DNA of 64,000 bases from the IMG/VR virus record IMGVR_UViG_3300029305_009146; one strand, written 5' to 3'. The translations under genes were made by a program, and so were the position numbers. The stretch is from an uncultured virus (IMG/VR IMGVR_UViG_3300029305_009146). Its lineage: Duplodnaviria > Heunggongvirae > Uroviricota > Caudoviricetes. Numbering within the stretch: the first letter of the stretch is position 1; the number at the start of each line of letters is the position of its first letter. Below the pieces are notes generated by a model, which saw only the letters and a program-made list of their open reading frames with translations, had not been told where the DNA came from and made no database searches. Shown in pieces: positions 1,282 to 48,400 of the stretch.

Positions 1282-1354
1282 TTAGGCCTCCTTTTTTGGA
1301 TAAAAAGAGCCCCGATACAGTAAACAGAATACCATATCCCGGCTCAAATGTCCA

Positions 1355-1573
1355 TCAGATTTCATTCATTTTTTCAATAAAGTTCTCAAACGCCTTGCGC
1401 TTAATAATTCTTTTCTTTCCTATAAATAATACAAAAGGACAGCGCGGGTCATTTGTCATGTCATAGAGCTTGTTAATCCCAATATTGCTATAGGCAGAAG
1501 CTTCTTCGATTGACAAGTTAAGTTTTTCCCAAATGGGAACCTGCAATTTGGTTTCCGTATCTTCCTTATTCAT
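1355..1573 (-). CDS. xis: Excisionase / HTH DNA-binding protein
   Basis: 72 aa, VPIWEKLNLSIEEASAYSNIGINKLY pattern of Firmicutes excisionases; directly upstream of int; AGGAGG RBS. Confidence 0.85.
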   Translation of the reverse strand: MNKEDTETKLQVPIWEKLNLSIEEASAYSNIGINKLYDMTNDPRCPFVLFIGKKRIIKRKAFENFIEKMNEI

Positions 1574-1602
1574 ACAACACCTCCTGAAGTGAAATCATAT
1601 TT

Positions 1603-1631
1603 GTTAAGGGAAAAATAACGCCTTATATAAA
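1603..1631 (-). promoter_or_regulatory. Element promoter-like motif TTTATA-N16-CCTTAAC
   Basis: Upstream of xis-int, after a terminator hairpin. Confidence 0.7.
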
Positions 1632-1664
1632 AAAAGAGGATGGAATTTTCTTCCATCCTTCTTT

Positions 1665-2225
1665 TTAGCAAAATCCTAACTCTTCATATCCCGCATCAGC
1701 GAAGTCCATTTGCTGTCCATCCACGCCCCGGCGCTGTTTTTCTTCTGCTTTTTCTTCTAAATTGTTAAGGAAGTTCTGAAGAATTTCTTTGGTAAAATCC
1801 CCGTACTCTTGACGCAGAGCTTTAGTCTCCACATAGACATTTTCCCAAAAGGAATCCACTTCCTGTCGGTTGGAATTGTCTGGGAGCAGTACCGGCGGGT
1901 CGTCGTATTTTCTTGAAAGCTCAACAAACTTTCCATAAAACCCGAACTCTGGAGAGCCTTTTTCAAAGGAATCTTCCTGCTGTTTTAAAATACGGTACTG
2001 GGCTTCCAAAACGCCTGCGCGTCGTTCCATCTCCTTCATAAAGCTCAGTACCATATTTTTGGCGTAGGATGTGGGATGCTTTTTCTCAACAAATTCTCTT
2101 GCGTCGTTATCGAGTCTCTGCCAGTACGCGTCCGTAGATAAGCCGTCTTTGTCAAACTCAATGTTCTTGTTTCTTTTCATGAATCTCCAAAAATCTGCAT
2201 AAAATGCATCGTTTGCTGCTTCCAT
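1665..2225 (-). CDS. Hypothetical protein with two internal helical repeats
   Basis: Start moved to MEAAND (AGGAGG RBS); FYxxF...DxxW...F...LExxA occurs twice. Confidence 0.7.
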   Translation of the reverse strand: MEAANDAFYADFWRFMKRNKNIEFDKDGLSTDAYWQRLDNDAREFVEKKHPTSYAKNMVLSFMKEMERRAGVLEAQYRILKQQEDSFEKGSPEFGFYGKFVELSRKYDDPPVLLPDNSNRQEVDSFWENVYVETKALRQEYGDFTKEILQNFLNNLEEKAEEKQRRGVDGQQMDFADAGYEELGFC

Positions 2226-2236
2226 AGTACACCTCC

Positions 2237-2833
2237 TTAAAACAACTCCGGACATTCCTGTGCCGGAATACCTCTTTTTCCCATCTCTTTCACATAACTG
2301 CGGTAAATAAGCTCAGCCACTCTTTCAGGAGGATAAATATCCCCATAAGAAGGGACGACAACATCTATCAGCATTTTTACATCTGCATAACGTTTGTAAT
2401 CAGATGAAATTCGGCGTTCCACCTCAGCTTCGCTCCAGTTTCGAGAAGCGATACGTTCCCTCATTACATCCTCAGGCAAAAAGAGCTGCGCAACAAAAAT
2501 TTCATCCTTCATGGGGCCTTCTTTAAGCATTTTTATTCCATCCGGAGAACATATCATAACCCGGTTCGAGGTATAATCATCAATAATCGAACCATAATAC
2601 CACGGTTTGTCATCGTCAGCTACATGGAATATTTCAAATTCCGCCAGCATGCCGGAATCAATCATCTGTTCAAAAGTTTTGTTGTCGGTACCATGATAGG
2701 TTTTGCCATCTATTTCGCCTGGGCGAAACGGTCTGGTTGTAAACCGGACAATCGGCTCTAAGCCGTAACGCTCTTTTAAAATCTTTAAAACTGTGTCCTT
2801 GCCGCATGTGGGCATTCCACAAAGAATCAGCAT
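2237..2833 (-). CDS. gmk: Guanylate kinase-like protein
   Basis: P-loop GMPTCGKDT, TTRPFRPGEIDGKTYH and YYGS motifs. Confidence 0.85.
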   Translation of the reverse strand: MLILCGMPTCGKDTVLKILKERYGLEPIVRFTTRPFRPGEIDGKTYHGTDNKTFEQMIDSGMLAEFEIFHVADDDKPWYYGSIIDDYTSNRVMICSPDGIKMLKEGPMKDEIFVAQLFLPEDVMRERIASRNWSEAEVERRISSDYKRYADVKMLIDVVVPSYGDIYPPERVAELIYRSYVKEMGKRGIPAQECPELF

Positions 2834-2835
2834 AA

Positions 2836-3078
2836 CTATCTCTCCATTTCTTCATCCTTACCTATTTTTATACAACAATCAGTCCCCGGAACAATCGCCA
2901 GCGTACTCCCTGTTGCCCAGGCTACGTGTATCTGTCCGGCGTCATCTACGTACCGTACAATGCCCCTGGTCCCGGGTTCCGGTGCTTGTTTATCATCCAT
3001 ATAGATAAGTTCCAGTTCTGCACCTGCCGGGTACTTTTTTCTGATTGCATCTACTTCTGCTCTGCTCGGAAATCTCAT
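2836..3078 (-). CDS. DUF4314 family protein
   Basis: KYPAGAELELIYMDD...GTRGIVRYVDDAGQIHVAW pattern; start MRFPS overlaps the upstream stop (ATGA). Confidence 0.8.
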   Translation of the reverse strand: MRFPSRAEVDAIRKKYPAGAELELIYMDDKQAPEPGTRGIVRYVDDAGQIHVAWATGSTLAIVPGTDCCIKIGKDEEMER

Positions 3079-4052
3079 CGCCCTATCTCCTCTTCCTGTT
3101 CTTTTTCTTCTGTATGAAAGGTTAGGTCTGTTTTCCATAATCCGTCACTTACCGCATACACATTGTGGACGCTCCACGGAAGTTGTTCGCGAAATCCGTA
3201 ACATTTATCGATGTCCGGAATAAGGTCGGCAATCATGAAATATGGAAGTTCTACATCTTTATCCAGTTCAATCTCAAGGACAGAACCTCCGCCATTCCAT
3301 TTGTCAAACAGTCCGCATTCTGTATTTTTAGGGATAGTGACAGTGCCGTTTTCCCCATGCTGGATATCATCTATCAATTTCATATAGTCAAGGAGCGGCA
3401 TTTTTATAAGAAAGATGAGTGCACCCATGCTTGATGTAAGATTTTCAAGCTCCGAGACAGCAGAAGACACAAAGCGGTCTTCCATTTTCACGGGGCCCGG
3501 GGACAAACAGTCCTTGACCGCTTTTCTTAAAAGCTCTTCTTTGCCTTGTTGTTTTGCCAGCCACAGGATGGAGGATTCTTCAGGGAACTCTCCGTCGCCG
3601 TTTGCAGCATAATTGAGAATATTGTTGCAGGTATAGTCATAGTCGGCGTCTCCGGAGTCTACAAAAAGAGTCAGGCACACGCTCCTGTTATAGTGTGCTT
3701 TATCCGCCTCGTAATGGACATGCTCTTCGAGCCACAACAAAATATCGTCCTTGAAATGCTCGAAAAGCTCAGCCGGAAGGGCTCCTTCAATTTTGTCCAT
3801 CAGCTCCGGATATTCATGTTCCCAACTCTTCTCGGTTTCCATATCATAGAAGTATTCATCCAGCGCTTCCCGCGGGAACTCTGCAGACATAATATCTTTT
3901 AAAGTGCAATTTTCTATTTCGTCCCGGTAATCAGCAAAAAGGGTAGAAAAATATTCCCCGTCTTCTTTCCGGTCCCAGTCTTCTTTATCCAGAATGTTCT
4001 TTATTATTGTTTCTATGCCATCCCAGAATATATCCATGTTTTCCTTTTCCAT
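3075..4052 (-). CDS. Acidic hypothetical protein
   Basis: 325-aa ORF with RBS, in operon orientation. Confidence 0.75.
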   Translation of the reverse strand: MEKENMDIFWDGIETIIKNILDKEDWDRKEDGEYFSTLFADYRDEIENCTLKDIMSAEFPREALDEYFYDMETEKSWEHEYPELMDKIEGALPAELFEHFKDDILLWLEEHVHYEADKAHYNRSVCLTLFVDSGDADYDYTCNNILNYAANGDGEFPEESSILWLAKQQGKEELLRKAVKDCLSPGPVKMEDRFVSSAVSELENLTSSMGALIFLIKMPLLDYMKLIDDIQHGENGTVTIPKNTECGLFDKWNGGGSVLEIELDKDVELPYFMIADLIPDIDKCYGFREQLPWSVHNVYAVSDGLWKTDLTFHTEEKEQEEEIGR

Positions 4053-4145
4053 AAAAATCTCCCTCTTTCGAATGCAGAATTATGAATTATGAATTAAGAA
4101 TGGTGGTATCTCCATTATTCCTTATTCATTATTCATTGTATCTCT

Positions 4146-4152
4146 GTTAAGG
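4146..4152 (-). promoter_or_regulatory. Element motif core (TTTTC)CCTTAAC
   Basis: Intergenic, upstream of 3075..4052; no TTTATT box at N16. Confidence 0.6.
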
Positions 4153-4162
4153 GAAAATTTTC

Positions 4163-4423
4163 TTAGATGACTTTTTGGTAATAATAAATAAGAATAAATC
4201 CGAGTGGCCACGGGATTATGGATATGACGTGTTTTGGAAGAACATCGTCCATATTTATAAAATCAAGCAAATCGTCCAGTGTTTCAAAATCACCTCTTTT
4301 GTAATATGAATCTGTTTTGCAATCTACGTTTGCGCATATCGGGCATTGCAACAGCAGTCCCTTTTTCTTTGGTGTAACCGTCCATTCTTCGCCAACATAT
4401 TTACAAAATTTACATTCTTTCAT
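4163..4423 (-). CDS. Small Cys-rich (zinc-binding) hypothetical protein
   Basis: CKFC and CPIC pairs; start at MKECKF with GGAGG RBS. Confidence 0.6.
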   Translation of the reverse strand: MKECKFCKYVGEEWTVTPKKKGLLLQCPICANVDCKTDSYYKRGDFETLDDLLDFINMDDVLPKHVISIIPWPLGFILIYYYQKVI

Positions 4424-4494
4424 GATTTTGTCCTCCTGTAATCTTTTATTTTCTTGCAAATCACAGGTTTTCACTGCTTTTTTCTTACAATACT

Positions 4495-4523
4495 GTTAAG
4501 GAAAATAATTAGGCACTTTTAAA
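4495..4523 (-). promoter_or_regulatory. Element promoter-like motif TTTAAA-N16-CCTTAAC
   Basis: One of a divergent pair of motif copies. Confidence 0.65.
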
Positions 4524-4532
4524 ATTTCTTTC

Positions 4533-4539
4533 CCTTAAC
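4533..4539 (+). promoter_or_regulatory. Element motif core (TTTC)CCTTAAC on + strand
   Basis: Only intergenic + strand copy seen; 32 nt upstream of the only + strand gene. Confidence 0.7.
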
Positions 4540-4571
4540 ATAAAGTGTATATACTTTGAAAGGAGAATTTT

Positions 4572-5453
4572 ATGGCAGACAAATACAGTTTTATTACAAT
4601 CAAGAAAATAAATTCTATGGGTGTGCTCAGCAAGGCATATTCTCACAACTACCGGACATCGTTTGTTCCTAACGCAGACAGTTCCCTTCACATGAAAAAC
4701 GAAGAGCTGGTCAACAAGAGCCACTTAAACTATAATGAACGCTGGGAACGTCGCATGAAAGAAGCCGGAGCAAAACTTGGGCGAAAAGATGCTGTCCGGG
4801 CATATGAAATCATTACAACCTATTCCGATACCGGATTTGTGGATGTGGAGGAATGGAAAAAAGACAATGTAAAATGGATGCAGGACTACTTTGGAAAAGA
4901 CAATGTGCTATCCATGATGTTTCACGGGGACGAGTGCGGGAATGTACATATCCACTCGATTGTAATTCCTATCGATGAACGAGGGCGCCTTTGTGCAAAG
5001 TCTTTCACGGGTGGTGCGAAAAAAATGCACGAGTTACAAAATTCTTACGGCGCAGCAATGGAAAAGCATGGTTTAAAGAGAGGTCTTGAAAACAGCAGAG
5101 CAAAGCACCAGGACATTCGCCGTTTTTATGCGGCACTCAATAACGCAGTTTCTGCTAAAATCCCGGAGAGAGAACAAGGAGAGGATTTCGAGGAGTATTT
5201 TAATCGTGTAAATACTTACCTGCAGGAAAAAGAACTCAAAAATCTTGGCGAAAAACAAGCATTAAAACGTGAGGTAGATGAAGCAAAGACGCATCTCTTC
5301 ACGTTTAAAAAGAAATACAAAAAGGCCATCAAGCTTCACGACACATGGGAAGGCCTTTACGGACTGGAAAGCACTGAAATGCAGTTTGACCGGCTTCTTG
5401 CAAAAACAGAAGAAAATAAACAGACTGCAAAGGAAAAGGAACTATCCGAATAG
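4572..5453 (+). CDS. mobV: MobV/Pre family relaxase (plasmid recombination enzyme)
   Basis: HNYR motif I and HGDECGNVHIHSIVIP HUH motif; coiled-coil C-terminus. Confidence 0.9.
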   Translation: MADKYSFITIKKINSMGVLSKAYSHNYRTSFVPNADSSLHMKNEELVNKSHLNYNERWERRMKEAGAKLGRKDAVRAYEIITTYSDTGFVDVEEWKKDNVKWMQDYFGKDNVLSMMFHGDECGNVHIHSIVIPIDERGRLCAKSFTGGAKKMHELQNSYGAAMEKHGLKRGLENSRAKHQDIRRFYAALNNAVSAKIPEREQGEDFEEYFNRVNTYLQEKELKNLGEKQALKREVDEAKTHLFTFKKKYKKAIKLHDTWEGLYGLESTEMQFDRLLAKTEENKQTAKEKELSE

Positions 5454-21766: not shown

Positions 21767-23614
21767 TCAATATTCAATCTTTGAAAGAATATTTTCCAGC
21801 TTCTTTACGCTCTCGGTAGTATCATTAGTCAGCTCGTGATTGTTGTCAGTAACCGAAGCAACGTTTGCGGTTTTTTCCGCGATATCCGCAACACCCATAA
21901 CATTTTCGTCAATAATGATGTTGATTTCGTTTACTGCACCGGAAACTTCATCAATTACAGTATTCATCTCTGAGACTTCCTTGTGAATCACTTCCATGCC
22001 GGACATGAACGTGTCTGCATCTGACATATACTGTTCGCTCAAGTTACGAAAGTTATCGTAATCGCTTAAAACAGAAGCACCTAAAAATTCTGTTGTCCCG
22101 GTCATGCACTTTGTGATATCCGAAACTGCAGCATCGGTAGCCTTAATAATTTCATTAATGCTCTTTACAGTATCCAGAGAACGAGCCGCCAGATTCCTGA
22201 TTTCTCCGGCAACGACGGCAAAGCCCTTACCGGCCTCTCCTGCTCTTGCGGCTTCGATGGAAGCGTTAAGGGAAAGGAGGTTGGTCTGGTCAGAAATCTC
22301 GATAATAGCCGCAGTCAATTCATTAATCTTCTTTACTGCTTTTAACTTTTCAAGAGATGTAGATGTATCTTCCTTGATTTGTTCGTACATTTTCTGCGTC
22401 TGAGTGATTGCATTAACGGTTACATTCTGAAGCTCCGTGGTTCTCTTTGCAATCTCCTTGGAAACCTCATTATTTTTTTCTACCGCACTTTCAATGCTCT
22501 CTGACTTTTCCTTCATCTGTGCAATACGCTCAGTCATTGCATTTGTTGTTTCTGCAACCTTGCCGGAGTTATGAGAAAGCGCCTCGGTTGTTTTGGAGTT
22601 ATTTTGGCACAGCATACGCACTTCTTCACTGGAATCTTCCAACGCTTGCATATTCTCTCTTATCTGTCCGTTTGCATTTTCTATCCGGGAAATCATCTCC
22701 CCAAGACTGGCAGTCATCTTCTGGACCGACCGACTCATGGTTCCGGTCTCGTCTTTTTTGTCACAGAGACGTTCCAAGTCGTCGGAAGCCTTTAACTTTA
22801 AATCGGCAATATCGTCAATGATTTTACCAACCTTTTGGATTGGTTTTGTGATACGGTTTGAAATATACTGACTCAGAAAGATTGACGCAGCCATCAGGCA
22901 TGCAACCGTAACACAAGAAATTAACACAAGTCTGCGAATAGGACTCATAAGTTCACTTCCGCTGGCACAAACCACCACGACAGACTTGATTCCTGTTACG
23001 TAATAGCTTGCATAATAGGTCTCACCGTCTTCTTCGAACTCCATGCAGAGATTATCTGGGACAACGCCTCTTGCGAGCTTTCCCAAAAGGTCAGAAAGTA
23101 CGCTGTTTCTCACCGGTTTTTTGATTTTTGATGCGTCGGTATGGTATTCAATAATACCACTACCGTTGGTTACGTAGTAATAATACGAATTAACTCCCTC
23201 CAGAGAAAAATCCTTCAAAATCTCTCCGTATTCTTCGGCGGAGAGCTGTATCGGTTTTGAGTTGATTTTGTTCTGTGGTTGCGCAGCCTGCTCTTTTACA
23301 TCCACCAGCTTACCGTAAGATGTAACAGTATTAAGCATCTTTCCGTAGGCGGAATCAATTACAAGGTCTTTCATACTGTTCATCAGCACAAGAAGAATTA
23401 CTGTAGCAGCAAGAACAATCCCCGAGACGGATGTCATGATAATCTTGGCTTTGATGGATTTAAGCTCGATTTTCGACAAAGGCTTTGTAACCTTCTTTAA
23501 TGCCGGCAGAATCTTTTTCCCGGCTTTAGATGAGACTTTTTTAGTTTTTCCTATAACCTTTTTAAGCGCAGAACCGGATTTCTTCGGACCTGCGTTTTTC
23601 TTTTCCTTTTTCAT
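21767..23614 (-). CDS. Methyl-accepting chemotaxis protein
   Basis: Two TM helices, Cache-like sensor, [31 protein letters not shown] signalling hairpin. Confidence 0.95.
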
Positions 23615-23655
23615 ATATTCTCCTTTCTTACCTTTTTCTCTTGAGAAAAACGGAG

Positions 23656-23726
23656 AGCTGGTAGAGGGAATTGAACCCCCGTAGGCAGATTACAAATCTG
23701 CTGCCAAGCCACTTGGCGATACCAGC
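23656..23726 (-). tRNA. tRNA-Thr(TGT)
   Basis: Cloverleaf; anticodon arm GCAGA-TTTGTAA-TCTGC; no encoded CCA. Confidence 0.85.
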
Positions 23727-23852
23727 AGTCCGGAGCACGCTCCGGTGTTCGGAGTCATTGCTCCAATTTTGAGGTCTAAGCCCCAGATAAAAAACCGATA
23801 ATGACTATGTCAAAATCGGGGGCTGTATCCAAACATGTTGGTACAGTCACAA

Positions 23853-23939
23853 CGCCTGGAGAGGGATTCGAACCCCCGTGCCATTTAAGGCTGTACGGTT
23901 TTCAAGACCGCCCCGTTACGACCACTTCGGTATCCAAGC
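23853..23939 (-). tRNA. tRNA-Ser(TGA)
   Basis: GCGGT-CTTGAAA-ACCGT, long variable arm, G discriminator. Confidence 0.9.
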
Positions 23940-23965
23940 AATAAAATATTGTTGTTTGTTTTTAG

Positions 23966-24103
23966 CGGCACAGGTAGGGCCCTGCTCTCCAGTGGAGAGC
24001 GTCTAGGGCGGACCGAGTCGGGAGACGAGACTTCGAACCCACGGTCCCTTTCGGAATCACTGGTTTTCAAGACCAGCCCCTTAAGCCTCTCGGGCACTGT
24101 GCC
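23966..24103 (-). tRNA. tRNA-Ser(TGA) with 52-nt insertion in the T-loop
   Basis: Acceptor GGCACAG/CTGTGCC, T-stem GTGGG/CCTAC, loop TTCGAA[23980-24031]C. Confidence 0.8.
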
Positions 24104-24118
24104 AAAATTAAACGAAAG

Positions 24119-24358
24119 CTATTTTTCATTTTCCTTCTCTTTCTTTGTCCACTCAATCAACCCATGAATGTTCATAAGTGAATAAACAGCATACATTACC
24201 ACATTTGCCAAATTAAACGTTGTAAGAAAATTGACAAGAATCCACGTAAGGTTGCTGGCTATCCATACAGGAAAAGCAGCTTTCTTCTTTTTATTAATCA
24301 AAACCTGTCCACCCAAACTCAAAACCGTTGCCAACCACGACAAAATAATACCTAGCAT
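24119..24358 (-). CDS. Short PnuC-like membrane protein
   Basis: Three hydrophobic segments, FPVWIASN and NIHGLIEW resemble a PnuC half; embedded in the tRNA array. Confidence 0.6.
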   Translation of the reverse strand: MLGIILSWLATVLSLGGQVLINKKKKAAFPVWIASNLTWILVNFLTTFNLANVVMYAVYSLMNIHGLIEWTKKEKENEK

Positions 24359-24580
24359 TGTACTTTCTCCTTGTTTGTTATTCTCTTTAATCACGAAAAA
24401 AAATCCCTCTTATAAAACCAACTGCCATTTAGGCCCGCTCTTATCTCGTCAGATAGGCGCAACTTCCAAGGGATTCGAAACCAAGAGAAGTGGAATGTGG
24501 TGTCCCCTCTGCGTTTGGTATCGAAGTTTTTTCAGAATTTGTAAGCCACACATCTTACAACTCCTTATAGATGGAAAAAA

Positions 24581-24651
24581 TGGACCGTGTAGGGTTCGAA
24601 CCTACGCACCGGTTATGACCCGACCACTCTAACCAACTGAGCTAACGGTCC
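24581..24651 (-). tRNA. tRNA(CAT), Ile2/Met type, slightly degenerate
   Basis: GTCGG-GTCATAA-CCGGT; very short variable region. Confidence 0.75.
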
Positions 24652-24723
24652 ACAGACTGCTATACAGCAGCTATATAGCAGTCATGACACATATTTGGTT
24701 TTTGCCGTCCACGACAACGGCAA

Positions 24724-24795
24724 CTGGGCTGGCAGGATTCGAACCTGCGAATGCAGGGGCCAAGACCCTGTGCCTTACCTCTTGGCGACAGCCCA
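24724..24795 (-). tRNA. tRNA-Gln(TTG) with C at position 33
   Basis: Gln-type body TGGGCTG...CAGCCCA-G; loop TC-TTG-GC. Confidence 0.8.
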
Positions 24796-24802
24796 ATGTT
24801 AA

Positions 24803-24934
24803 ATACTTACGGTGTGCGGCCGGAATGGCTTCCAGCTCCGGAGCAAGGCTATCCTCGTGTGTTGTTTGATATACGTCTATATCTCATCCACACGGTTCCT
24901 ACACGTCCTACGGACTACCGTACACCGTAAATAC
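24803..24934 (-). ncRNA. Candidate structured ncRNA (~132 nt)
   Basis: 16 of 17 pairs in the closing helix, which encloses three hairpins. Confidence 0.55.
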
Positions 24935-25120
24935 TTAAAAATATATACATGCAATGCTCTTTTTCGCCCGGTGAAACCACCGATTTGCAGATTTAATGTT
25001 ACTCCTTCAGGAAGGCTACCATGGATTATTTCCTATAAGGGTGCAGGCATCACATAGAAACTTTTACATATGGCCTTATGCAAAGATGTTCCCCTAGCCT
25101 GCTTAAACTAATTTCCCTAG

Positions 25121-25193
25121 TCGAGGTAGCCGGACTCGAACCGACGACGTCGTGAACCCAAATCACGCGCCCTACCATCTGGGCCATACCTCG
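25121..25193 (-). tRNA. tRNA-Pro(TGG)
   Basis: CGTGA-TTTGGGT-TCACG, canonical cloverleaf. Confidence 0.9.
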
Positions 25194-25204
25194 AAAAGCT
25201 ATTT

Positions 25205-25519
25205 GCCGTCACACAGGTTGCAACCCTAGACTGCTTTCCCTCTGGGAAGGTCTTTCGTTCAATAAGCTATCCGTTCAAAGCGGATGTCTCTGCTTATCAC
25301 GCAGTCCAAACCTTTGAGAGTGTATCTCCTCTATTGTTTTAAATGGTTTTTCGACCCCTGTACACGAATGCACGAACGAGCGAAGGTTACGCCTTTTCCC
25401 GTCAGGGCCATGTCCAAAACTCTCCTACGCAGTCACTATCGCTCTTTAACCTCGGCCTTGCTTCTCAAGACTAATATCCTCTGTCTTGACACCCCATCGG
25501 AAAGGGTTCGCCTTACGGC
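25205..25519 (-). ncRNA. Candidate large structured ncRNA (~315 nt)
   Basis: End-to-end pairing GCCGT/ACGGC and AACCCT/AGGGTT, many internal stems, no credible ORF. Confidence 0.6.
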
Positions 25520-25522
25520 TAG

Positions 25523-25679
25523 TAGCCTCTGCCGGACTCGAACCGGCGTAGCCTTTGTCTTTTTCCCGGGTTATTACACAAAAGCTGTTGCGTATTCCTG
25601 ACAAATTATTCCGCAACCATCCCTATTCTTACTGGTTTGTAAAAACTAGGAGTGCTTGTACCAACTAAGCTAAGAGGCT
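25523..25679 (-). ncRNA. tRNA-like RNA with three hairpins (~105 nt) replacing the anticodon and variable arms
   Basis: Perfect acceptor AGCCTCT/AGAGGCT, D arm GCTT/AAGC, T arm GCCGG-TTCGAGT-CCGGC. Confidence 0.75.
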
Positions 25680-25685
25680 ATATAA

Positions 25686-25758
25686 TCGAAGCGACCGGAT
25701 TTGAACCGACGACCTCTGCACCCCCAGTGCAGCGCTCCACCAACTGAGCCACGCTTCG
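25686..25758 (-). tRNA. tRNA-Pro(GGG)
   Basis: CTGCA-CTGGGGG-TGCAG, canonical cloverleaf. Confidence 0.9.
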
Positions 25759-25855
25759 ATGTTCCCAGAGAACAAAGAAGCTCTCCGGGAGTAACAAAAT
25801 ATTTTAGGAGGTATCCCATGCTCTGAGATACTGTGGGGGCACAACTCCCCACGAA

Positions 25856-25948
25856 TACGACAAGCGGGATTCGAACCCGCCATACAACCGGTTGCTCATG
25901 CCGCACAGAATGTCTAGTCCTGTCCATTACCACACCTGGAATTGTCGT
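25856..25948 (-). tRNA. Atypical class II tRNA, anticodon AGA (Ser-like)
   Basis: Acceptor ACGACAA/TTGTCGT, CAGGA-CTAGACA-TTCTG, long variable arm, perfect T arm. Confidence 0.6.
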
Positions 25949-25994
25949 ACCAGTTTTTTGAGCCGATGTAATTGAGCGTGCTTATCTAGCACAG

Positions 25995-26071
25995 TCCCCT
26001 ATACAGGATTTGAACCTGTGACCTCTCGGCTTTTGCAGACCAAGCGCTCTTCCTGGCTGAGCTAATGAGGG
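25995..26071 (-). tRNA. Atypical tRNA with enlarged anticodon arm (loop CTGCAAAA)
   Basis: Normal D and T arms; CTTGGT/GCCGAG stem with 8-nt loop; one acceptor mismatch. Confidence 0.6.
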
Positions 26072-26152
26072 ATGAACGCTCCCGTCACACCCGGGCGGGG
26101 GCGTTATGTTGGTAAGTAGTTTACAAGGAGGACTTCTGGCAAAGAAGCCCAG

Positions 26153-26211
26153 TGAGGTACTCGGGAATTGAACCCGGGTGTTTTTGCTTCCCTTTTTGAA
26201 GCATATACCCC
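26153..26211 (-). ncRNA. 59-nt tRNA-like RNA lacking the anticodon arm
   Basis: Acceptor GGGGTAT/GTACCTC, GCTTC/GAAGC arm, 8-nt linker, CGGG-TTCAATT-CCCG. Confidence 0.65.
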
Positions 26212-26240
26212 AGAAAGGAACCAACGCAACCATCTTTCAC

Positions 26241-27796
26241 CGAAACCTATGCTACGGAAGCCCCTCGCTTTAGCCATGGGGAGGAAGTAGCACAAGCCCT
26301 TTCTGTATAATATTTATATCCATCTGATTTCTGCACAAGAGTAATATACTTATGGTTTATGCCCTGTACACGCTCTTTGCCTGTCTTAACATCGAAAGAG
26401 CCGCTCTTTCTGCATGCAACGGTCCCGTAGTATACACCTACCTTCTTTCCGGACGTGACGACGGCTTTTACCATATCTCCCGTCTGAAACCCGAAGAACT
26501 GCTTCTGTCTCGCGAAATAGCCTCTCGGAAATCCTGATGCATTTACGTTGGTTCTCTGATGGATTCCCCTGCCGACAGCCTTGATAAACTGGACGGTATC
26601 CGTTTTGAAAACCAAGATGTCCGGAGTGGAGGCTCCAACGCAAACCGCATCGTAGTAGTGTTCTTTCGGCAAGCCCAACCGGATGCGATTAAGTTTTGTT
26701 CTGCCGCCAGTCCCGCATTCTATCGGAATACCAAAGGATTTCAATATCTGCAATACAGCCCACCGGGTTGCGGTTACCATTGCAGCATCTTTCAGTGGTT
26801 TCCTTGTGAGTGCCTGTACCTGTGGGTGCCCAAATTCTTCGGCTGTCATGTTGTCTTTCTTCTGATTGCAGTCATGGCAGGCTATTGCGAGATTACTGAT
26901 TCGGTTAGAACCTCCCCGGGACTTCGGAATGATGTGCTCGATTTCAAGCTTTGCATTCTCCGTTCCGCAATACGCACACTTCCGATTAAACTTCTCAAGA
27001 AGGTACTCTCTTACCTCGTATCCCGCTAACTCTCCCTGCTGATATTCAATCCCGCAGATATCCGGATTTTGAAGTAATTGGGTATCAAACTTAACGTTCT
27101 CGTAGGATATATATCCGAGTGGAACAATCTTTGACAACCTCCTTACAAAGGCGTGGATGTTATTTATCCGGCTCATCAAAGATGGAGGCAACCAGCCCTC
27201 TGGTCTCCTCCGGTTTAGAAACCGGGGTTTACGGTAACGCAGATTTGAGGAACGTCTGCGCCGGCGGTATCCCCTTCTGGCATCAAGATTACTCTTGATG
27301 TCAGTTCTGTGCTCCATCTGACCAAGCCAGCACATCTCATTACCCTTCAGAATAGCAAGACCAGTGTGCCTGCTGCCGTAGTCAATCTTTATGCGGTAAG
27401 ACTTTTCCGGAGACTGTTCCGCTCCCTTCTTTAAGATGATGGTGAACGGAGCTTTCCGGAAGATTGCCGCCTTACCATCTTTTAAAAGCCTTCTTGCTTT
27501 TGCCGGATGACACATGTCCAACGGCTGTTTATTTGCATCCAGTACAAATACCATGGAATCTTATTCCTTTCTCGCCTTACGGCGGTAAATATCCTCTCGC
27601 CAATGTTAATTAAGCTTTTCATGCTATACACACTACCCATTACCCCATGACGGATTGTTTAATGTATAACGACAGAGCGACGGACTGAGGAGGCATCCGA
27701 AGGTGTCATGACTTAATTAACGTAGCACATCATGTGCTTAAGCTGGTCAATATGAGGCTTTTACAAGCCCCTACCTTTAGGTATGGGGTTATTGAC
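26241..27796 (-). mobile_element. IscB-type IS200/IS605 element (non-autonomous)
   Basis: Begins GTCAATAACCCCATACCTAAAGGTAGGGGCTT; ends with the related hairpin CCCCATGGCTAAAGCGAGGGGCTT; 3' boundary uncertain by a few nt. Confidence 0.8.
26247..27554 (-). CDS. iscB: IscB RNA-guided endonuclease (RuvC + HNH)
   Basis: VFVLD..KQPLDMCHPAKAR N-terminus, IDYGS RuvC-I, Arg-rich bridge helix, CAYC...EHIIPKSRGGSN HNH, HYYDA RuvC-III. Confidence 0.95.
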   Translation of the reverse strand: MVFVLDANKQPLDMCHPAKARRLLKDGKAAIFRKAPFTIILKKGAEQSPEKSYRIKIDYGSRHTGLAILKGNEMCWLGQMEHRTDIKSNLDARRGYRRRRRSSNLRYRKPRFLNRRRPEGWLPPSLMSRINNIHAFVRRLSKIVPLGYISYENVKFDTQLLQNPDICGIEYQQGELAGYEVREYLLEKFNRKCAYCGTENAKLEIEHIIPKSRGGSNRISNLAIACHDCNQKKDNMTAEEFGHPQVQALTRKPLKDAAMVTATRWAVLQILKSFGIPIECGTGGRTKLNRIRLGLPKEHYYDAVCVGASTPDILVFKTDTVQFIKAVGRGIHQRTNVNASGFPRGYFARQKQFFGFQTGDMVKAVVTSGKKVGVYYGTVACRKSGSFDVKTGKERVQGINHKYITLVQKSDGYKYYTERACATSSPWLKRGASVA

Positions 27797-27812
27797 TTCT
27801 ACGCCGGGATTT
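27560..27812 (-). ncRNA. IscB omegaRNA (HEARO-like) including 5' guide
   Basis: GTCAA...TTGACCAGCTTAAG...CTACGTT...ACATTGGCGAGAGG scaffold upstream of iscB. Confidence 0.8.
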
Positions 27813-27913
27813 GCCGAAAGTCGGCAACGTTGTGCGTCTAAACAGAAGATGTGGTTTTTACCAACGTACAACGCCATGCTTAAGCTTACTTTTGCATCTT
27901 TGTCGGATGCGAA

Positions 27914-27981
27914 TACTCCACAGCGGAATCGAACCGCCATCTTCCCGTTAAACGAGTGCTCTGCCATTGAGCTAATGGAAT
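27914..27981 (-). tRNA. tRNA-like gene with shortened anticodon arm (3-nt loop TTA)
   Basis: Normal acceptor, D and T arms; CTCGT-TTA-ACGGG is 13 nt instead of 17. Confidence 0.65.
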
Positions 27982-28040
27982 ACTTAATCACACAGAAAGG
28001 AGGCGAAACTAAGAAATTGCCGGGTAATCACTCCGGCGAG

Positions 28041-28114
28041 TGTGCCATATAGGACTTGAACCTATGACCAACCGGTTATGAGCCGGCCGCTCTCACCAAC
28101 TGAGCTAAAGGCAC
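28041..28114 (-). tRNA. tRNA(CAT), Ile2/Met type
   Basis: GCCGG-CTCATAA-CCGGT cloverleaf. Confidence 0.88.
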
Positions 28115-28206
28115 AAAGTTTATCCTTTCTTAGAGGAGTTTCCCCGGCCCGCTGTAATCTCGGCGGGCCAAGGAGTGGAGGTATAACAATGAAAAGAAAA
28201 GCTGCG

Positions 28207-28279
28207 TGGGCCACGCGGGAATCGAACCCGCGACACCCGGATTAAAAGTCCGGTGCTCTGCCGCCTGAGCTAGTGGTCC
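28207..28279 (-). tRNA. tRNA-Lys(TTT)
   Basis: CCGGA-CTTTTAA-TCCGG cloverleaf. Confidence 0.92.
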
Positions 28280-28368
28280 TTGTACGCGTCGCCATCGGCT
28301 CATCCTTGTCCGGCTCGGCAGCGGCGCGCGTGCTCGAAATAATTTGCTCTGTAATTTCTTACGTTATT

Positions 28369-28397
28369 GTTAAGGGAAAAAATTTGCAGAAAATAAA
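28369..28397 (-). promoter_or_regulatory. Element promoter-like motif TTTATT-N16-CCTTAAC
   Basis: Exact match heading the tRNA array. Confidence 0.75.
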
Positions 28398-28415
28398 AGT
28401 TTTTGATGTTTTTTT

Positions 28416-28940
28416 CTACAGCTTAAAGAAAAGGTTGCAGAGCTCCTGCATAAACTCGTCTCCTACCGGGGACCTGTGTTCAGCATTCGGAGCATTCACT
28501 TCTCTCGGCATATAGTCAAAAATTGTTGCCGAAACTGCTCCCGGACGCTTACCGGATGTATACTGGAGCGGCGTTGTCTTGGCGTGTTCGCTACCATATA
28601 TTTTCTTAGCAAGGCTGATTAATTCCTCTTCCGGCTTATCAATCGTGCGTACGCCATAACGCTTAAACGCCTTCTTACTATCCAGATGATATCTTGGTCC
28701 AAATGTCTTTTCTACCACTCCCATAGCGTAATCGTACTTCATATCTTCCGGGGCAAAACAAAGCACAAGATGCTCTGTATGCGTTGCCGCTTCTTCTACA
28801 GAAACCACTACCAGGTTCTTCTTCACAATCTCGTTGAGCTTCTGTTCCTTCTCGGAAAGAACCGCCTTCATTTTCTCTTCTTCGATAAAGCGGATTGCCT
28901 CATCGTAATCTAACTCTCTTCCGTTTACATTAATCTTCAT
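28416..28940 (-). CDS. Hypothetical protein
   Basis: 174-aa ORF with RBS. Confidence 0.7.
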   Translation of the reverse strand: MKINVNGRELDYDEAIRFIEEEKMKAVLSEKEQKLNEIVKKNLVVVSVEEAATHTEHLVLCFAPEDMKYDYAMGVVEKTFGPRYHLDSKKAFKRYGVRTIDKPEEELISLAKKIYGSEHAKTTPLQYTSGKRPGAVSATIFDYMPREVNAPNAEHRSPVGDEFMQELCNLFFKL

Positions 28941-30056: not shown

Positions 30057-30599
30057 TCACTCCGTTTTCTGCAAATACTTCGCTGGTACTTCATTTGTGA
30101 GCCAAACACCGTTTGCAGAGAGGTAGAACTTATATCCATCCTTTGCCATCTGACCGGTATTTACCCGATAGAGTACTAACTTGCCATGCCTCTCCCCTAC
30201 CATAACGGCCGTTTCTAAATCCTTGCTCAGATGAACATGAAGTCTGCTCTTTGGGATAAGACCGTTCTTTTCAATGGAAGCGACATATTTCTCTGCAGTT
30301 CCATGCCAGAGATAATCCGGCGGAGTTGCTTCCGGAAACTCCAAGTCTACCGGAATGGAATGTCCCTGATTCGCCCGGATGCAGGTCATGTCTTCATTGA
30401 ATGCATAGCGCTGCTTCTCATCCGTAGCGACAATCTCCTTTAATAAATCCATATCAAAGGATTCAAACTCCGGATTCTTTTTAATTCCGGCAATCAATTC
30501 CTTTGTATTTGCCCAGCCATGCCTATCTAAGGCAATGCCGATAACCTCCGGCTTATGGCGCAAAATAAGGGCAATGAATTTACTTACATGGGTTTTCAT
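30057..30599 (-). CDS. kptA: RNA 2'-phosphotransferase (Tpt1/KptA)
   Basis: ILRH, LDRHGW, KQRY, IRANQGHS, LWHGT and HVHLS motifs. Confidence 0.95.
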   Translation of the reverse strand: MKTHVSKFIALILRHKPEVIGIALDRHGWANTKELIAGIKKNPEFESFDMDLLKEIVATDEKQRYAFNEDMTCIRANQGHSIPVDLEFPEATPPDYLWHGTAEKYVASIEKNGLIPKSRLHVHLSKDLETAVMVGERHGKLVLYRVNTGQMAKDGYKFYLSANGVWLTNEVPAKYLQKTE

Positions 30600-31239
30600 A
30601 AAAAGATTTCTCCTCTCTTTCTTCCTGTAGACGCTCTTGATACATCTCATACAGCGTCGGAGAAGTTTGTTTTAATAGCTCTTCCAGCTTTTCAAAATCA
30701 TCACACCATTCGCAGACATTAAACGGAGCCTGATGTCCGTCGTCATAATCAGCGAAAAATCTTGCTGCTGGAGAGTGAGGACATCCTCCGGTGTAGTTAA
30801 AATTAATTCCATCCCAATCATCCCATGCTATATCAAAACATGCTGCTCCATAACCACTTTTTCTGATTGTTTTTTCGAAGTCATGGATTTTACCGCAAAC
30901 ATCACTGAAAGTGTCTTCTCTAAATCCACGATAAGACTGTTCGGCAAGCAACAAGACTAATACTTTAAACCGCTCTTGTTCATCTTCAGATACAGGTCTC
31001 TTCTTGATAAGCTCTTGCATTTTTTTCTGCACAACCTGAGCATGTTCTGCACGATATTCGTCAATTGTTTTCTCTGGCTTTAAGACAGTCATAGTGTCGT
31101 GGGTAGTATCGAGAAACTTAACATTCCACATGCCAAGCCTGTTAACAAGAGCTCTTGCTGTGAATTTTAACTTATCCTCAGCAACAAAATCAAGTTCTTT
31201 TTCCAGTACCGATAAAAATACTTCTTCAGCAGTTTTCAT
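30580..31239 (-). CDS. Hypothetical protein, paralog of 31265..31966 (C-terminal domain)
   Basis: ADYDD...VCEW...PTLYEMYQERL. Confidence 0.7.
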   Translation of the reverse strand: MKTAEEVFLSVLEKELDFVAEDKLKFTARALVNRLGMWNVKFLDTTHDTMTVLKPEKTIDEYRAEHAQVVQKKMQELIKKRPVSEDEQERFKVLVLLLAEQSYRGFREDTFSDVCGKIHDFEKTIRKSGYGAACFDIAWDDWDGINFNYTGGCPHSPAARFFADYDDGHQAPFNVCEWCDDFEKLEELLKQTSPTLYEMYQERLQEEREEKSFYENPCK

Positions 31240-39534: not shown

Positions 39535-40641
39535 TTAATCTGCCCTTTTTCGGCGCTTAAAAAGTATGTTATAAACGGCTCTTTCTAGGAAATTCAAATT
39601 TTGTCCTGATGAAAGCAACGCGGTTCCCTCTTCCGGGGTAATCTCCGGAATATCCTCTCTTATATCGCGAGGCGGAATAAATCCAATCTCTTCACCAAGG
39701 GTGTATGCCATATTGTCCATGCAGTCAACCGACTCCGGAGCAATATCCAAAACATCCAGCCATTCGTGGGCCTTCCTTGAGGGGTTTAAAACATAAATAC
39801 AACTACAGAGATTATACATAGCTTGCGATGTTCTTGAACCGAAGCTCCCTTTTTCAACACTCCCCACGCAGATTCCGGCGTGTCTTCTCAGTCTTTTGAC
39901 AAACGAAATAATGAACTCATCTGAGTCTTTTTTCAGTAATGCATCAAGATGAGGAATGTAAACCCACGTAAACTTATCGGTATTGCGGAACTTCTCATGG
40001 ATTGCCGGAAGCAAATGGCTCAAAACCGAAATGACGATTGCAGCCTTAAGACGGTCATCAATGGAATCCATGTGTAAAATGATACATCTTTGGTCAAAAT
40101 CTATGTTTGTGTTCTCAGAAACACATCCGAGCCGACTTATCTGATGGACAAAGAGTTTGGTCTGTGAATCCTCTTCTTTTGCAAGCTCTGCGAGAATATC
40201 AGCCATAGTTCTACGCTCCCGTTCAAGAGCTCGGTTTACCGCGTTTCTAATAGCAGCGGTGGCAGAACTCGTGTGTAGCGTAGAAGGAAGAAGCTCCATA
40301 GATTTCATCATGGCAAGCAGGGTATCAATAGCCCTAAACACTTCATCCTCGCTATCATTCGGGATAAAAGTTGACTGATATAGAGGAGCAACAAGAGCAT
40401 GCTCTCCCATGAGAAGACTGATTCTCTTGGCTCCATACGCCTTCAATTCCGGGCCGTAATCCCCGAAGGCATCAATTACAACGACATCGTTATTTGTGTT
40501 TCGAAGGACATCGATGATATCTGTTTTCATTACAAAGTTCCCGGCCTCTCCGGGGTCTGCCACAATAAGAGTGTTGTAGCAACGAAGGTCTAAGCTTCTC
40601 CGTTTTCTAAGAGCTTCAGTAAAAATATTTTCAGTCATCAT
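39535..40641 (-). CDS. Degenerate VirB4/TraE-like ATPase domain
   Basis: NTLIVADPGEAGNF (Walker A lacks GK), VVVIDAFGDY, TWVYIPHLD (Walker B lacks DE), KRLRRHAG. Confidence 0.55.
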   Translation of the reverse strand: MMTENIFTEALRKRRSLDLRCYNTLIVADPGEAGNFVMKTDIIDVLRNTNNDVVVIDAFGDYGPELKAYGAKRISLLMGEHALVAPLYQSTFIPNDSEDEVFRAIDTLLAMMKSMELLPSTLHTSSATAAIRNAVNRALERERRTMADILAELAKEEDSQTKLFVHQISRLGCVSENTNIDFDQRCIILHMDSIDDRLKAAIVISVLSHLLPAIHEKFRNTDKFTWVYIPHLDALLKKDSDEFIISFVKRLRRHAGICVGSVEKGSFGSRTSQAMYNLCSCIYVLNPSRKAHEWLDVLDIAPESVDCMDNMAYTLGEEIGFIPPRDIREDIPEITPEEGTALLSSGQNLNFLERAVYNILFKRRKRAD

Positions 40642-45412: not shown

Positions 45413-48400
45413 TTATCTGTAATTAAGAGTGAACATCATTCCGGTCTTTTCTGAACTAAACGTTACAGAAAGCGGCAAGGTTGTTTCTCTTAAAATCTTA
45501 AAGAGCTCCTTCTCGGAAGCGGGCACGGTATATACATCGTCACCAACAGAGATAGTCATCTTTGTATCTGCCGGGAATTTGGTTACCTGACCACACGAAA
45601 GTAATCTTTCAATGTACTCTTCTGCTGTAATAGCTCCGCTTCTAAGATTCTCGGTCATAACCGGAACAAACCATAATTCTTCATCACCCTTCGCCATGCC
45701 TTCCGGAACAAAGTCCGCGGTATAAATACCATGGAACTTTTTCTTGCGTCTGAAGAGTAAAATCAACAAACAGGATACGCCACCGGCTCCGGTAACAGTA
45801 ACCGGGATAGCTGCCGGAATAAGGTCTACGATTCTATCCTGCAATTCTTCCGGCTCCGGATTTGGTGTGGGTTCCGGTGTCGGTGCAGGCGTGTTTGTAG
45901 GAGCCGGCGTACTTGTCGGTGCCGTTGTCGGAACCGGAGTGTTTGTTGGCATTGGAGTAGCGGTAGGCGCTACAGTTGCCGCAGGCTCCGGGGTCGGAGT
46001 TGCTGTAGGCTTCGGTGTCGCCGTTGGCTTAGGTGTAGCCGTAGGAAGCGGCGTAGCTGTCGGAGCCGGGGTTACAGTCGGAACCGGAGTTGCTGTCGGT
46101 ACCGGGGTACTTGTAGGTGCAACTGTCGGCGTAGGTGCGACTGTTGGTGTCGGCAACGGAGTTGTAGTCGGTCTCGGGGTAGGTGTTATCTTAATCACCG
46201 GATACCACGGAATCGGTGTTGCCGTAGGCATCGGAGTCGCAGTCGGGACTGGCGTTGCCGTCGGGACCGGAGTGGCTGTAGGTGCCACAGTCGGTGTTGG
46301 AAGCGGAGTTGCTGTCGGCATTGGAGTAGCACTTGGTACAGGTGTCACTGTAGGTGTCGGCTTTGGAGTTACTGTTGGTGTAGGAGCCGGTTTGTATCCG
46401 GGCACCTTGGTATCATCATCAAAGCCCTTCCAAGTGACGACAACAGTGTTGTCACCTTCTTTTTCAACCGTATCTGGGGTGTAGGTGCACTCGTTCGGGT
46501 TAACCACTTCCGGAGTTACGTACGTACCGTCGATAAGCGGAGTGAAATTTGCGATTACATCAAAATCGTCCTGGGAAATCTCTGTACCTACAAGCAGTTT
46601 ATCTCCTGTATAGGTCGCCTCGATACCTGCATATGTATAGCCCCATGTAATAAAGGAGTCAGATAATCCTTTCCATACAACAACATGTTCGTTATTACCG
46701 ATTACATCTACCTTAAGAGTAGAAATGGTACACTCGTCTACGGGAACCGGAATGGTCATAGGGGTTCCACCGTTTACCGGAGTGGTAACAGCTTCCACTG
46801 CAATATCATCCTTATCAATCACGCTTCCGGTAAGATTGTCGATTGGACCGGAATAAGTTACGATAATTCGGTCGTATCCATATCCCGGGATGTCTACATC
46901 TGCACTAAGACCGGTATCCGCGTTGTCAATGGTAAAGGTGTTTGCTCCTACTCGTGTAATTTCCAAAGAAGGAATCGTACACTCTTCTATCGGAATTTCA
47001 AAAGGAGTAAGAGTGCTGCCGTCACGCTTCTCTGTATAAGAACAAACAACGGTAATATCATTTTTGTCAGCCTTTTCTCCGACAAGAATTGCGTCTCCGC
47101 CATAGGTGGCGGTAAGCTCCTTGTAATCGTAACCCCATACATCAAAGGTATCAGAGAAACCGTCCCAGGTAACAGCGAAATCGTTTTCACCGATGGTGGT
47201 GATGGAATCACTGGATAAAACGTACTCGGTTTCATCAAGAGTAATATCCGGCAAGGTGGTACCGTCCTGTAACGGGGAATACGTTGCAATAACGGTCAGC
47301 TTATCCGCATCAAGCTCGGTTCCCACAAACAGGTTGTCCTCGTTGTAGGTTGCTTCAATACCGGAAATCTCATAGCCCCATGTATGGAAGGAATCAGACA
47401 TGCCCTCCCACGTAACTACGTGTTCATTGTCGCCGGTATTTTCTACATCAAGGGTAGATATGGTACAATCTTCGATATCTACCGGAACAGTTGTTGTTCC
47501 GCTACCGGTATCCGGTAGGATTGCTACTACCGTAATATCATCCTTATCAATCACTGTATCCACCGGGTTGTCAACCGGGCCGGTGTAAGTTACCTTAATG
47601 CCTTCATAATCATACCCCGGAATAACCGCGGTTGTGTTCTTGAGAGCCGGTGGGTACTGTACCGGGAAGGAATTGTCTCCATCAACCGTAATTCTTAATT
47701 GCGGAATGATACAATCTGTATAAGGAATGGATAACGGAGTCTTCGGGACACCGTTACTACCGACTGTAAAAGTCAGGGTAAAGGATAAATCGCTCTTATT
47801 GGCGTCGTTACCAACCAAGATGGATGGGCCATTGTATGTACAAAGAAGCTTGTCATAGTCATAGCCCCAAACATCAAACGTAAGGTTTTGATACGTAAAC
47901 GTATTTTCCTCTGTCACTGTAATGGTAAAGACAGTGTCGGTAAGTTGGTCCAGAGTTGTGGTTTCTGTTGTTCCGTCAGCGTATTCGTTTTCAACAACAA
48001 CATCCGCATTGTCAACAGCCGTGCCCACAAACAGGTCATCTCCGATATATTCGGCGGTAGCCCGAACCGGAACCTTCTTAAGCGTCATCTCGGTTGAGAA
48101 CACATTGGTGAGTGGAATATCCTGCTCCGGATAGTCTGTTCTGTGGTCGTACGGATGTCCCCACAGCATAGCCATGGAATACACATCAGTATAACCTCTC
48201 TCATAGAGTTCCGGCAACACAACAACCACCGGTTCTTCGGAAGTGACATTTGTGGAAGAGCCAAAGATATCCTTTGTTCCAATCACTTTATCGGTGTAAG
48301 CATTCAAGATTGCAGTCTTTTCCGCTTCGGATGCGACACCGATTAACTTCTGTGTTTCCGCGTTTGCATAATAGGCTTGTGCCGTTCTCATGGAAGATGC

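Follow-up and report, generated by a model that had tools for sequence, protein, structure and literature searches.

A 52-nt insert splits the T-loop of a tRNA-Ser(UGA) gene in a large mobile element of gut Clostridia, and our sequence comparisons show that it belongs to a dispersed structured family with well over 100 copies in Clostridia genomes and phage-like contigs. We favor, with some reservation, the reading that these 52 nt arrived by insertion at the DNA level of a small, gene-less structured repeat. The window that we analyzed is a 64,000-nt stretch from an uncultured virus (IMG/VR IMGVR_UViG_3300029305_009146).

A tRNA-Ser(UGA) gene is split in its T-loop

The gene runs from 24103 to 23966 on the minus strand, and the insert (24031..23980) follows TTCGAA in its T-loop. 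Its layout is that of a type II tRNA: the D-stem has 3 bp, the anticodon loop reads CTTGAAA, the variable arm is long, and the gene does not encode CCA. The acceptor stem GGCACAG/CTGTGCC is fully paired and the T-stem GTGGG/CCTAC has one G-U pair. Neither ARAGORN nor Rfam at gathering score called a tRNA at 24103..23966; Rfam in E-value mode returned only a partial tRNA match at 24023-24098 (22.6 bits, model positions 6-65). The features are as follows:

24032..24103, minus strand: 5′ part of tRNA-Ser(UGA), positions 1-59, with acceptor GGCACAG, D-arm, anticodon arm (TGA), long variable arm, T-stem GTGGG and, at its end, T-loop TTCGAA
23980..24031, minus strand: 52-nt insert, one "GTCTCG-core" repeat module (deletion scan and family alignment)
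24011..24031, minus strand: core of the module, 21 nt, GTCTCGTCTCCCGACTCGGTC; 18 of 21 columns invariant in 34 aligned copies
23978..24010, minus strand: bulged hairpin domain (minimum-energy fold and covariation over 13 pairs)
23966..23979, minus strand: 3′ part of tRNA-Ser(UGA), with C60, T-stem CCTAC, acceptor CTGTGCC and discriminator G
23852-23940, minus strand: second tRNA-Ser(UGA), intact (ARAGORN 113.2, Rfam 52.6 bits)
30057-30650: KptA/Tpt1 (RNA 2′-phosphotransferase)

We deleted in silico every stretch of 35-69 nt from 40 start positions, and ARAGORN called a tRNA in 78 of the resulting 1400 variants. The top deletions were three equivalent 52-nt removals (24032..23981, 24031..23980 and 24030..23979), each yielding tRNA-Ser(tga) with a score of 115.5, inside the range of the ten intact tRNAs in the window (102.0-121.3). 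Once the 52 nt are gone, the 7-bp acceptor, D, anticodon and T arms and the type II variable arm are all in place. With a restoration this clean, chance does not account for the 13 downstream nucleotides that match the T and acceptor stems. A preliminary description of this DNA had reported a tRNA-Ser(TGA) at 23966-24103 with a 52-nt T-loop insertion whose removal restores the tRNA and a perfect acceptor stem, and the sequence reads just so.

Window positions 24032-24097 are 93.9% identical to tRNA-Ser(tga) of Acetoanaerobium noterae, with the match ending exactly at the insert, and over precursor positions 8-72 the identity to the tRNA-Ser(tga) genes of three Clostridia MAGs is 97%. The host tRNA-Ser(tga) genes run on with the usual TTCGAAT-CCCAC-acceptor end. 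Compared with host tRNA-Ser, the element copy has its own acceptor and D-stem sequences, with changes matched on both strands, which means that the element's tRNA-Ser was a functioning tRNA as it evolved, either until the insert arrived or in spite of it. The second tRNA-Ser(UGA), which differs in sequence, lies 26 nt downstream of the interrupted gene and is a possible functional back-up.

A 224-nt contig of the public run X1 spans 23829-24052 with 0 differences, and because it crosses the insert, the insert is present in DNA; X1 may be the window's own sample. No contig joint skipping the insert was found in runs X1, X3, X6 and X7, in which contigs hide rare alleles. Many host tRNA-Ser contigs in these runs lose the match at 24032 and then have a normal 3′ end. 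The public runs that contain the region are animal faeces and gut metagenomes.

The insert is one copy of a dispersed repeat family in Clostridia

The insert has no second copy within the window. BLAST of the 138-nt precursor recovered it in two of four Clostridia MAGs at 79-88% identity, with 86-88% in G003 and G004 and 79-87% at three further places in G004. These four MAGs had been reached via homologues of a neighboring 615-aa MCP-like protein, whose relatives are chromosomal Clostridia genes without tRNAs. We define the family by the insert's first 21 nt, GTCTCGYCTNCCGRCTCGGTC, together with the bulged hairpin. Searched as a degenerate 21-mer, this string matched at least 127 loci in genome contigs, where about 4 are expected by chance, and 18 loci in viral contigs, three of which (L170, L178 and L180) have no hairpin. 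Matches occurred in 10 of 301 genomes of the same taxonomic family as the MAGs, some of them by chance (L022 and L023 look so). Among the matches listed in genome contigs, all but one record title name a Clostridia-type organism, the hosts including Lachnospiraceae, Ruminococcus, Acutalibacter, Oscillospiraceae, Blautia and Eubacterium ruminantium. The exception, L053, is a MAG labeled Desulfovibrio, and its copy lacks the typical hairpin. Two Ruminococcus phages match the module, and the only annotation there is hypothetical protein; plasmids gave no module match.

The window itself is absent from the GenBank phage set and from PLSDB. Exact-string scans for the insert or the tRNA found nothing in viral contigs, nothing or one chance match (in a GC-rich Myxococcota contig) in genome contigs, and a single chance match, not a tRNA, in metagenome contigs. 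No Rfam family matches the module in 23 host loci (E up to 1 or 0.1), and we found no description of the family in the literature searched or in Rfam. The bases at the start of the insert, which the preliminary description had likened to another tRNA 3′ end, turn out to be the invariant core of this family.

Acutalibacter sp. 1XD8-33 carries at least nine module copies. At three of its loci (L047, L056 and L087) the copy is preceded by the truncated 11-nt start of another core, GAGTCTCGCCTG running straight into GTCTCG, which suggests nested or slipped insertions.

The module hairpin is kept by compensatory changes

In the family alignment, which holds 34 short-form copies with the window's included, the module is 54 nt long (24031..23978), and its last CC therefore doubles as T-stem C61-C62. 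The outer stem of the family hairpin, which follows the core, has 6 bp; after it come 4 bulged nucleotides and a stem of 7 bp that is closed by CC/GG and has the loop ACY. In the window, 24010..24005 pairs with 23983..23978 as the outer stem, the 4-nt bulge AGAC occupies 24004..24001, and the 7-bp stem with loop ACT spans 24000..23984. Some longer forms of the module hold a second hairpin inside the outer stem (three-way-junction copies).

The minimum-energy fold of the precursor contains GCTCTCC/GGAGAGC inside GCCCT/AGGGC with the AGAC bulge, exactly the fold that had been described from the letters. The same account had pointed out that AGAC is complementary to the first bases of the insert, GTCT; this is true of the window's insert and does not extend to its relatives, where the bulge is mostly AAAC. 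In the precursor fold the core pairs with the variable arm and the 5′ strand of the T-stem, and the T-arm is abolished. Folded in isolation, the 52 nt are no more stable than shuffles (z -0.31).

Covariation speaks for the hairpin. Over its 13 pairs, 93.4% of 442 cells are paired and 10 pairs have changed on both sides. Double-change cells number 102, whereas shuffling gave 29.4 ± 4.5 (none of 500 shuffles reached 102) and slid controls gave 13-29. These counts show that the family hairpin is kept by compensatory changes. Within the core, positions 7 and 14 covary as well (CG 107, TA 25, TG 3, CA 2 and AT 1 in 138 copies). Watson-Crick pairs fill 633 of 650 variable stem cells, with 8 G.T and 4 A.C; under the Watson-Crick-only filter this 8:4 ratio (p = 0.39) permits no call on which strand folds. 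The near-absence of wobble pairs looks closer to a DNA palindrome than to typical structured RNA.

Most copies are intergenic, and some split tRNA 3′ ends at the same T-loop position

Most module copies lie between ordinary housekeeping genes, and many are at MAG contig ends, as repeats are. A same-strand tRNA is found within 400 nt upstream in 15 of 169 distinct copies and is absent in 154. In 12 of these 15, the module is directly followed by a copy (at most 2 mismatches) of the upstream tRNA's last 13 nt, and in 11 of the 12 a GGGTTCGAA-, GGGTTCAAG- or GGGTTCG-like piece stands 5′ of the module, the exception being L160. The layout is thus an intact tRNA, a terminator, a short hairpin and then a copy of the T-arm and 3′ end that is split by the module. 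The upstream tRNAs are Arg-ACG, Gly-GCC, Gly-UCC, Leu-CAG and Leu-UAG, and the units measure 100-160 nt and are sometimes tandem, two to four per row. The split fragments have no 5′ half, and their split point is the T-loop spot seen in the window. These loci show that the family recurs at the exact T-loop position beside other tRNA-derived sequence. Homologous insertions, the lack of which had been named as an argument against a processed insert, do exist at this position, but they sit in 3′-end fragments that cannot be spliced into a tRNA.

The module occurs in both orientations with respect to tRNA or tmRNA pieces close by. The tmRNA-adjacent copies are in the opposite orientation, within a T-arm duplicate and in a tandem array. 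On contig C36 of G004, at about 1440-1650 on the minus strand, L015 and L030 form such arrays of two to four units, antisense in T-arm duplicates, one behind the intact tmRNA gene and one behind a 3′ fragment of tmRNA that is displaced and lies about 2 kb away. Antisense copies also adjoin reverse-complemented tRNA pieces (L064, L153, L169 and L171). On several phage- or ICE-like contigs the module is antisense, just upstream of the first gene of a block and beside a conserved promoter-like flank; at L168, L173, L174, L175, L181 (viral) and L122 it lies in the leader, between a TTGCTA ... TATAAT-like stretch and the ribosome-binding site. One of the first genes in this set resembles amidoligase genes of conjugative elements. 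Several viral-contig copies are near contig ends.

A second full-length tRNA with the module is a Glu-UUC gene in a tRNA array on an Eubacteriales MAG contig (L035, 229-360, plus strand). Here the module sits in the anticodon arm and a base has been lost at the junction. Deletion gives no clean restoration, leaving a G.G mismatch or a 6-nt loop. In both full-length cases, the window's Ser and this Glu, the module is in the sense orientation.

The insert does not resemble known introns or ribozymes

With the T-stem taken as the outer helix, the bulge-helix-bulge motif (two 3-nt bulges and a 4-bp helix) is absent. The four nucleotides before the 3′ bulge are GCAG, where CGAA is needed to pair with TTCG, and the minimum-energy fold has one 4-nt bulge on one strand only. 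A group I intron was rejected on length, 52 nt against a catalytic core (P3-P9) of at least 200 nt, and on the A at -1, which is not U; among the group I criteria, the terminal G of the insert alone fits. At E up to 10 in window positions 23500-28500, neither Intron_gpI nor any self-cleaving ribozyme (hammerhead, twister, pistol, hatchet, HDV-like) matched, and no ribozyme family was found in the 23 host loci at E up to 1 or 0.1. The preliminary judgment that the insert is too short for a group I or group II intron is thereby borne out. An RNase III-excised intervening sequence of the rRNA type was also rejected, with a closing helix of 5 + 7 bp around a 4-nt bulge where about two turns are expected. 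A search for RNA ligase genes, which had been suggested as a check, came back empty, with no Pfam or NCBIfam family of RNA ligases or splicing endonucleases in the window's 78 ORFs. An intron family is expected in genes, in sense and with a restorable product, and the GTCTCG-core family is mostly not so. The idea of a mini-intron removed from the RNA, advanced in the preliminary description, therefore fares poorly, both on these searches and because the module is mostly outside tRNA genes and in both orientations.

Tests for known routes of mobility

The module family consists of dispersed extragenic palindromic repeats kept as hairpins, as REP/REPIN sequences are. We found no link to Y1/RAYT genes. 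None of six Y1_Tnp loci, which came from four of five genomes containing the module, had the module within about 1.5 kb, save for one degenerate look-alike. A mini element derived from IS200/IS605 (PATE), which would insert 3′ of a single fixed tetra- or pentanucleotide, was rejected because even the base preceding the core is not fixed (G 59, T 34, A 31 and C 11 of 135), and the window's module has a single strong hairpin where PATEs have hairpins at both ends. The module does not resemble the ends of either the TnpB or the IscB (HEARO) element in the window. No integrase or transposase was found among 27 ORFs flanking module copies. One of five viral records with the module has an integrase, and the match in that record lacks the hairpin. 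An att site of a tRNA island was rejected for the window, which has no second CCCTACCTGTGCC; the host loci do carry a tRNA 3′-end repeat (12 of 15), yet there is no integrase in the 27 flanking ORFs.

The surrounding element and its tRNA array

The interrupted gene belongs to an array of about 12 tRNA genes (23655-28279), all on the minus strand and none encoding CCA. Other genes of the element include IscB with its HEARO/omega RNA, TnpB, RuvB, RecJ, KptA/Tpt1 and a HAD_SAK_2 protein. KptA and the HAD domain of RNA-repair proteins lie 6-8 kb from the interrupted tRNA-Ser; the KptA gene and the intact Ser(tga) next door had both been noted from the letters, and both are confirmed. Mobile elements that carry tRNAs often have RNA-repair sets, and KptA with its HAD_SAK_2 neighbor is presumably such a set, which we take to be the simpler reading.

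Several further features of the array and its surroundings deserve mention in their own right. A tRNA-like gene at 25522-25683 (minus strand) pairs all 7 bp of its acceptor (AGCCTCT/AGAGGCT) and has a T-arm and a canonical D-arm, between which about 90 extra nt form three hairpins (z -3.7). It has no Rfam call, ARAGORN with introns reads it as tRNA-Lys with a 64-nt intron, and a deletion scan gave equally good, contradictory restorations (Lys, stop, Tyr, Arg and Val). A tRNA with anticodon UUA at 27913-27982 (minus strand; Rfam 43 bits, ARAGORN at relaxed threshold only) is a possible ochre suppressor; with the standard code, the window's long ORFs read through. A tRNA whose anticodon loop has 8 nt (gcaa), at 25994-26071, and a 95-nt "tRNA-Ser(aga)" at 25855-25949 that ARAGORN calls and Rfam does not, both on the minus strand, suggest that the array holds several odd or decaying tRNA genes. 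Within the array lie iscB (26247-27796, minus strand) and its HEARO/omega RNA (26152-26249, minus strand, 160.5 bits), and a lone T-arm-like remnant, CCCGGGTTCAATTCCCGAG, adjoins iscB at its 3′ end, which gives the impression of a tRNA gene broken at this spot.

At 148-5453 the window has a tyrosine integrase, a Tn916-type excisionase, DUF4314 and a Mob_Pre relaxase, forming a small integrative, mobilizable unit. A VirB4-like ATPase fragment lies at 39535-40641 and a 2617-aa surface-type DUF285/LRR protein at 45413-53266. A large plasmid or an ICE-phage hybrid seems a better description of the host element than a plain phage.

Weighing the explanations

If the module entered as DNA, we hypothesize that an enzyme acting in trans would recognize the invariant core and the hairpin and place the module, and that placement would favor the loops of hairpin-forming DNA such as the T-arm, with CC microhomology at the right junction. 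The transcript would then carry 22 unpaired nt and a 12-bp hairpin between T-loop position 59 and position 60/61. Because the insert would break the elbow between T-loop and D-loop, the interrupted tRNA-Ser copy would probably be non-functional and the gene is probably dead; the intact Ser(UGA) gene 26 nt downstream and the host's own tRNA would then take over decoding. Several observations count against insertion at the DNA level. The exons are undecayed, all stems are intact, and removal of the 52 nt leaves a flawless cloverleaf; this state of the exons is compatible both with an insertion that happened recently and with a processed RNA that is still under selection. In addition, the module is in sense in both full-length tRNAs, KptA and the HAD domain are nearby, no mobilizing enzyme was found, and the contigs of four runs gave no insert-free allele.

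A minority reading, which we regard as improbable though worth keeping in view, takes site-specific recombination at tRNA T-loops to have left the module behind as a by-product. Integrative elements aimed at tRNA and tmRNA genes, namely prophages or ICE/IME remnants, would have the module in their attachment region, and an off-target or partial recombination event would have brought it into the window's gene as an att scar. It draws on the tandem 100-160-nt units behind tRNA-Arg, Gly and Leu and behind tmRNA, each with a tRNA 3′-end copy, on the several viral-contig copies close to contig ends, and on the tyrosine integrase, excisionase and Mob_Pre relaxase of the window. Yet the window has the bare module only, with no second tRNA 3′ end or other piece of the unit, the T-arm core is split by the module and not flanked, 154 of 169 copies lack the nearby upstream tRNA, and the flanks examined hold no integrase, with one in a single viral record of five. 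Such recombination explains the host arrays better than it does the bare module in the window. The preliminary description had offered an integration scar beside the intact Ser(TGA) as its alternative; insertion is indeed closer to the evidence, although the inserted piece is not a tRNA 3′-end remnant. We consider it unlikely that the 52 nt are a true intervening sequence, which would leave the pre-tRNA through self-cleavage or through RNases of the host or the element, after which the two halves would be religated or stay joined through the 12 bp of the acceptor and T stems to give a working tRNA-Ser. Exact restoration of a high-scoring tRNA (115.5), the undecayed exons, the compensatory D-stem and acceptor changes relative to host tRNA-Ser, the sense orientation and the neighboring KptA/Tpt1 and HAD_SAK_2 proteins are all consistent with it, as is the site, since tRNA positions 59/60 are on the outside of the elbow. 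Against this stand the missing bulge-helix-bulge (GCAG for CGAA), a length of 52 nt with A at -1, searches at E up to 10 that hit neither a ribozyme nor an intron family, a 12-bp helix that is short for RNase III, the lack of RNA ligase and endonuclease families in the 78 ORFs, stems nearly without G.U pairs, and relatives of the module located between genes, within 3′ fragments of tRNAs and in antisense orientation.

Even less probable, and in our view very doubtful, is a tRNA that works with the module retained as an extra T-loop arm, or one that acts as a decoy, drawing a tRNA-targeting nuclease. Every stem of the cloverleaf is intact and the hairpin closes beside the T-stem, so that it could stack outward; the minimum-energy fold, however, abolishes the T-arm, the family data give no pointer to a tRNA function, and we know of no natural elongator tRNA with a 50-nt T-loop insertion. 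We also speculate, as a long shot, that the GTCTCG-core is a new class of tiny mobile element that homes to tRNA-like loops (T-loop and anticodon loop) and is tolerated through RNA-level removal, with KptA and RNA-repair genes doing the healing. If true, it would be the first intervening sequence in a bacterial tRNA, group I/II introns aside, to be processed by a protein or a ribozyme.

On the reading that we favor, DNA-level insertion of a repeat, an apparent archaeal-style tRNA intron in a bacterial mobile element disappears. Its place is taken by a concrete family, a short structured repeat with a near-invariant 21-nt core in gut and rumen Clostridia and their phages. Small repeats linked to tRNA and tmRNA 3′ ends may explain tandem pseudo-3′-end arrays behind tRNA genes, and insertion of the module explains why tRNA finders miss such genes. 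Core and hairpin together make a defined DNA or RNA ligand with which to seek the enzyme that moves the module.

Comparison with known systems

Williams 2002 and Islander are said to describe genomic islands in tRNA and tmRNA genes with a T-loop sublocation. The module family resembles these islands in having tRNA and tmRNA targets at the T-loop and displaced direct 3′-end copies after an intact gene. It differs in that its units measure 100-160 nt and have no integrase, the T-arm copy is itself interrupted, and the window is without any displaced tRNA 3′ end.

In the portion of PMC11915505 on which we draw, group I introns of the tmRNA T-loop occupy four nearby subsites, predominantly in Bacillota; they are self-splicing, average 414 bp in the newly found set, carry U at -1 and terminate in G, and the smallest intron-form tmRNA gene is 545 bp. 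Common to both is an interrupted T-loop between intact flanking stems. As far as that portion goes, the site alone is shared, our insert being 52 nt long with A at -1 and no match to an intron model. The non-canonical, protein-spliced tRNA introns of archaea, as given for Aeropyrum pernix in an excerpt of PMC3241643, are short, lie at a position outside the anticodon, and restore the cloverleaf on removal, as here. Measured against that excerpt, the insert lacks a bulge-helix-bulge and lies in a bacterial (Clostridia) mobile element, with no splicing endonuclease found in the window.

Like REP/REPIN sequences and MITEs, the module is short, gene-less, multi-copy, mostly intergenic and sometimes tandem, and like REP/REPIN it has a hairpin held by compensatory change with a conserved short sequence adjoining. 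It departs from them in its tag, a 21-nt core starting GTCTCG and not the GTAG or CGTC given in the part of PMC3733652 consulted. No Y1/RAYT gene flanked by modules was found in the four genomes examined, and, unlike REP/REPIN, the module interrupts tRNA loops and copies of the T-arm. Among known kinds, REP/REPIN-like repeats and the att repeats of tRNA-integrating elements come closest.
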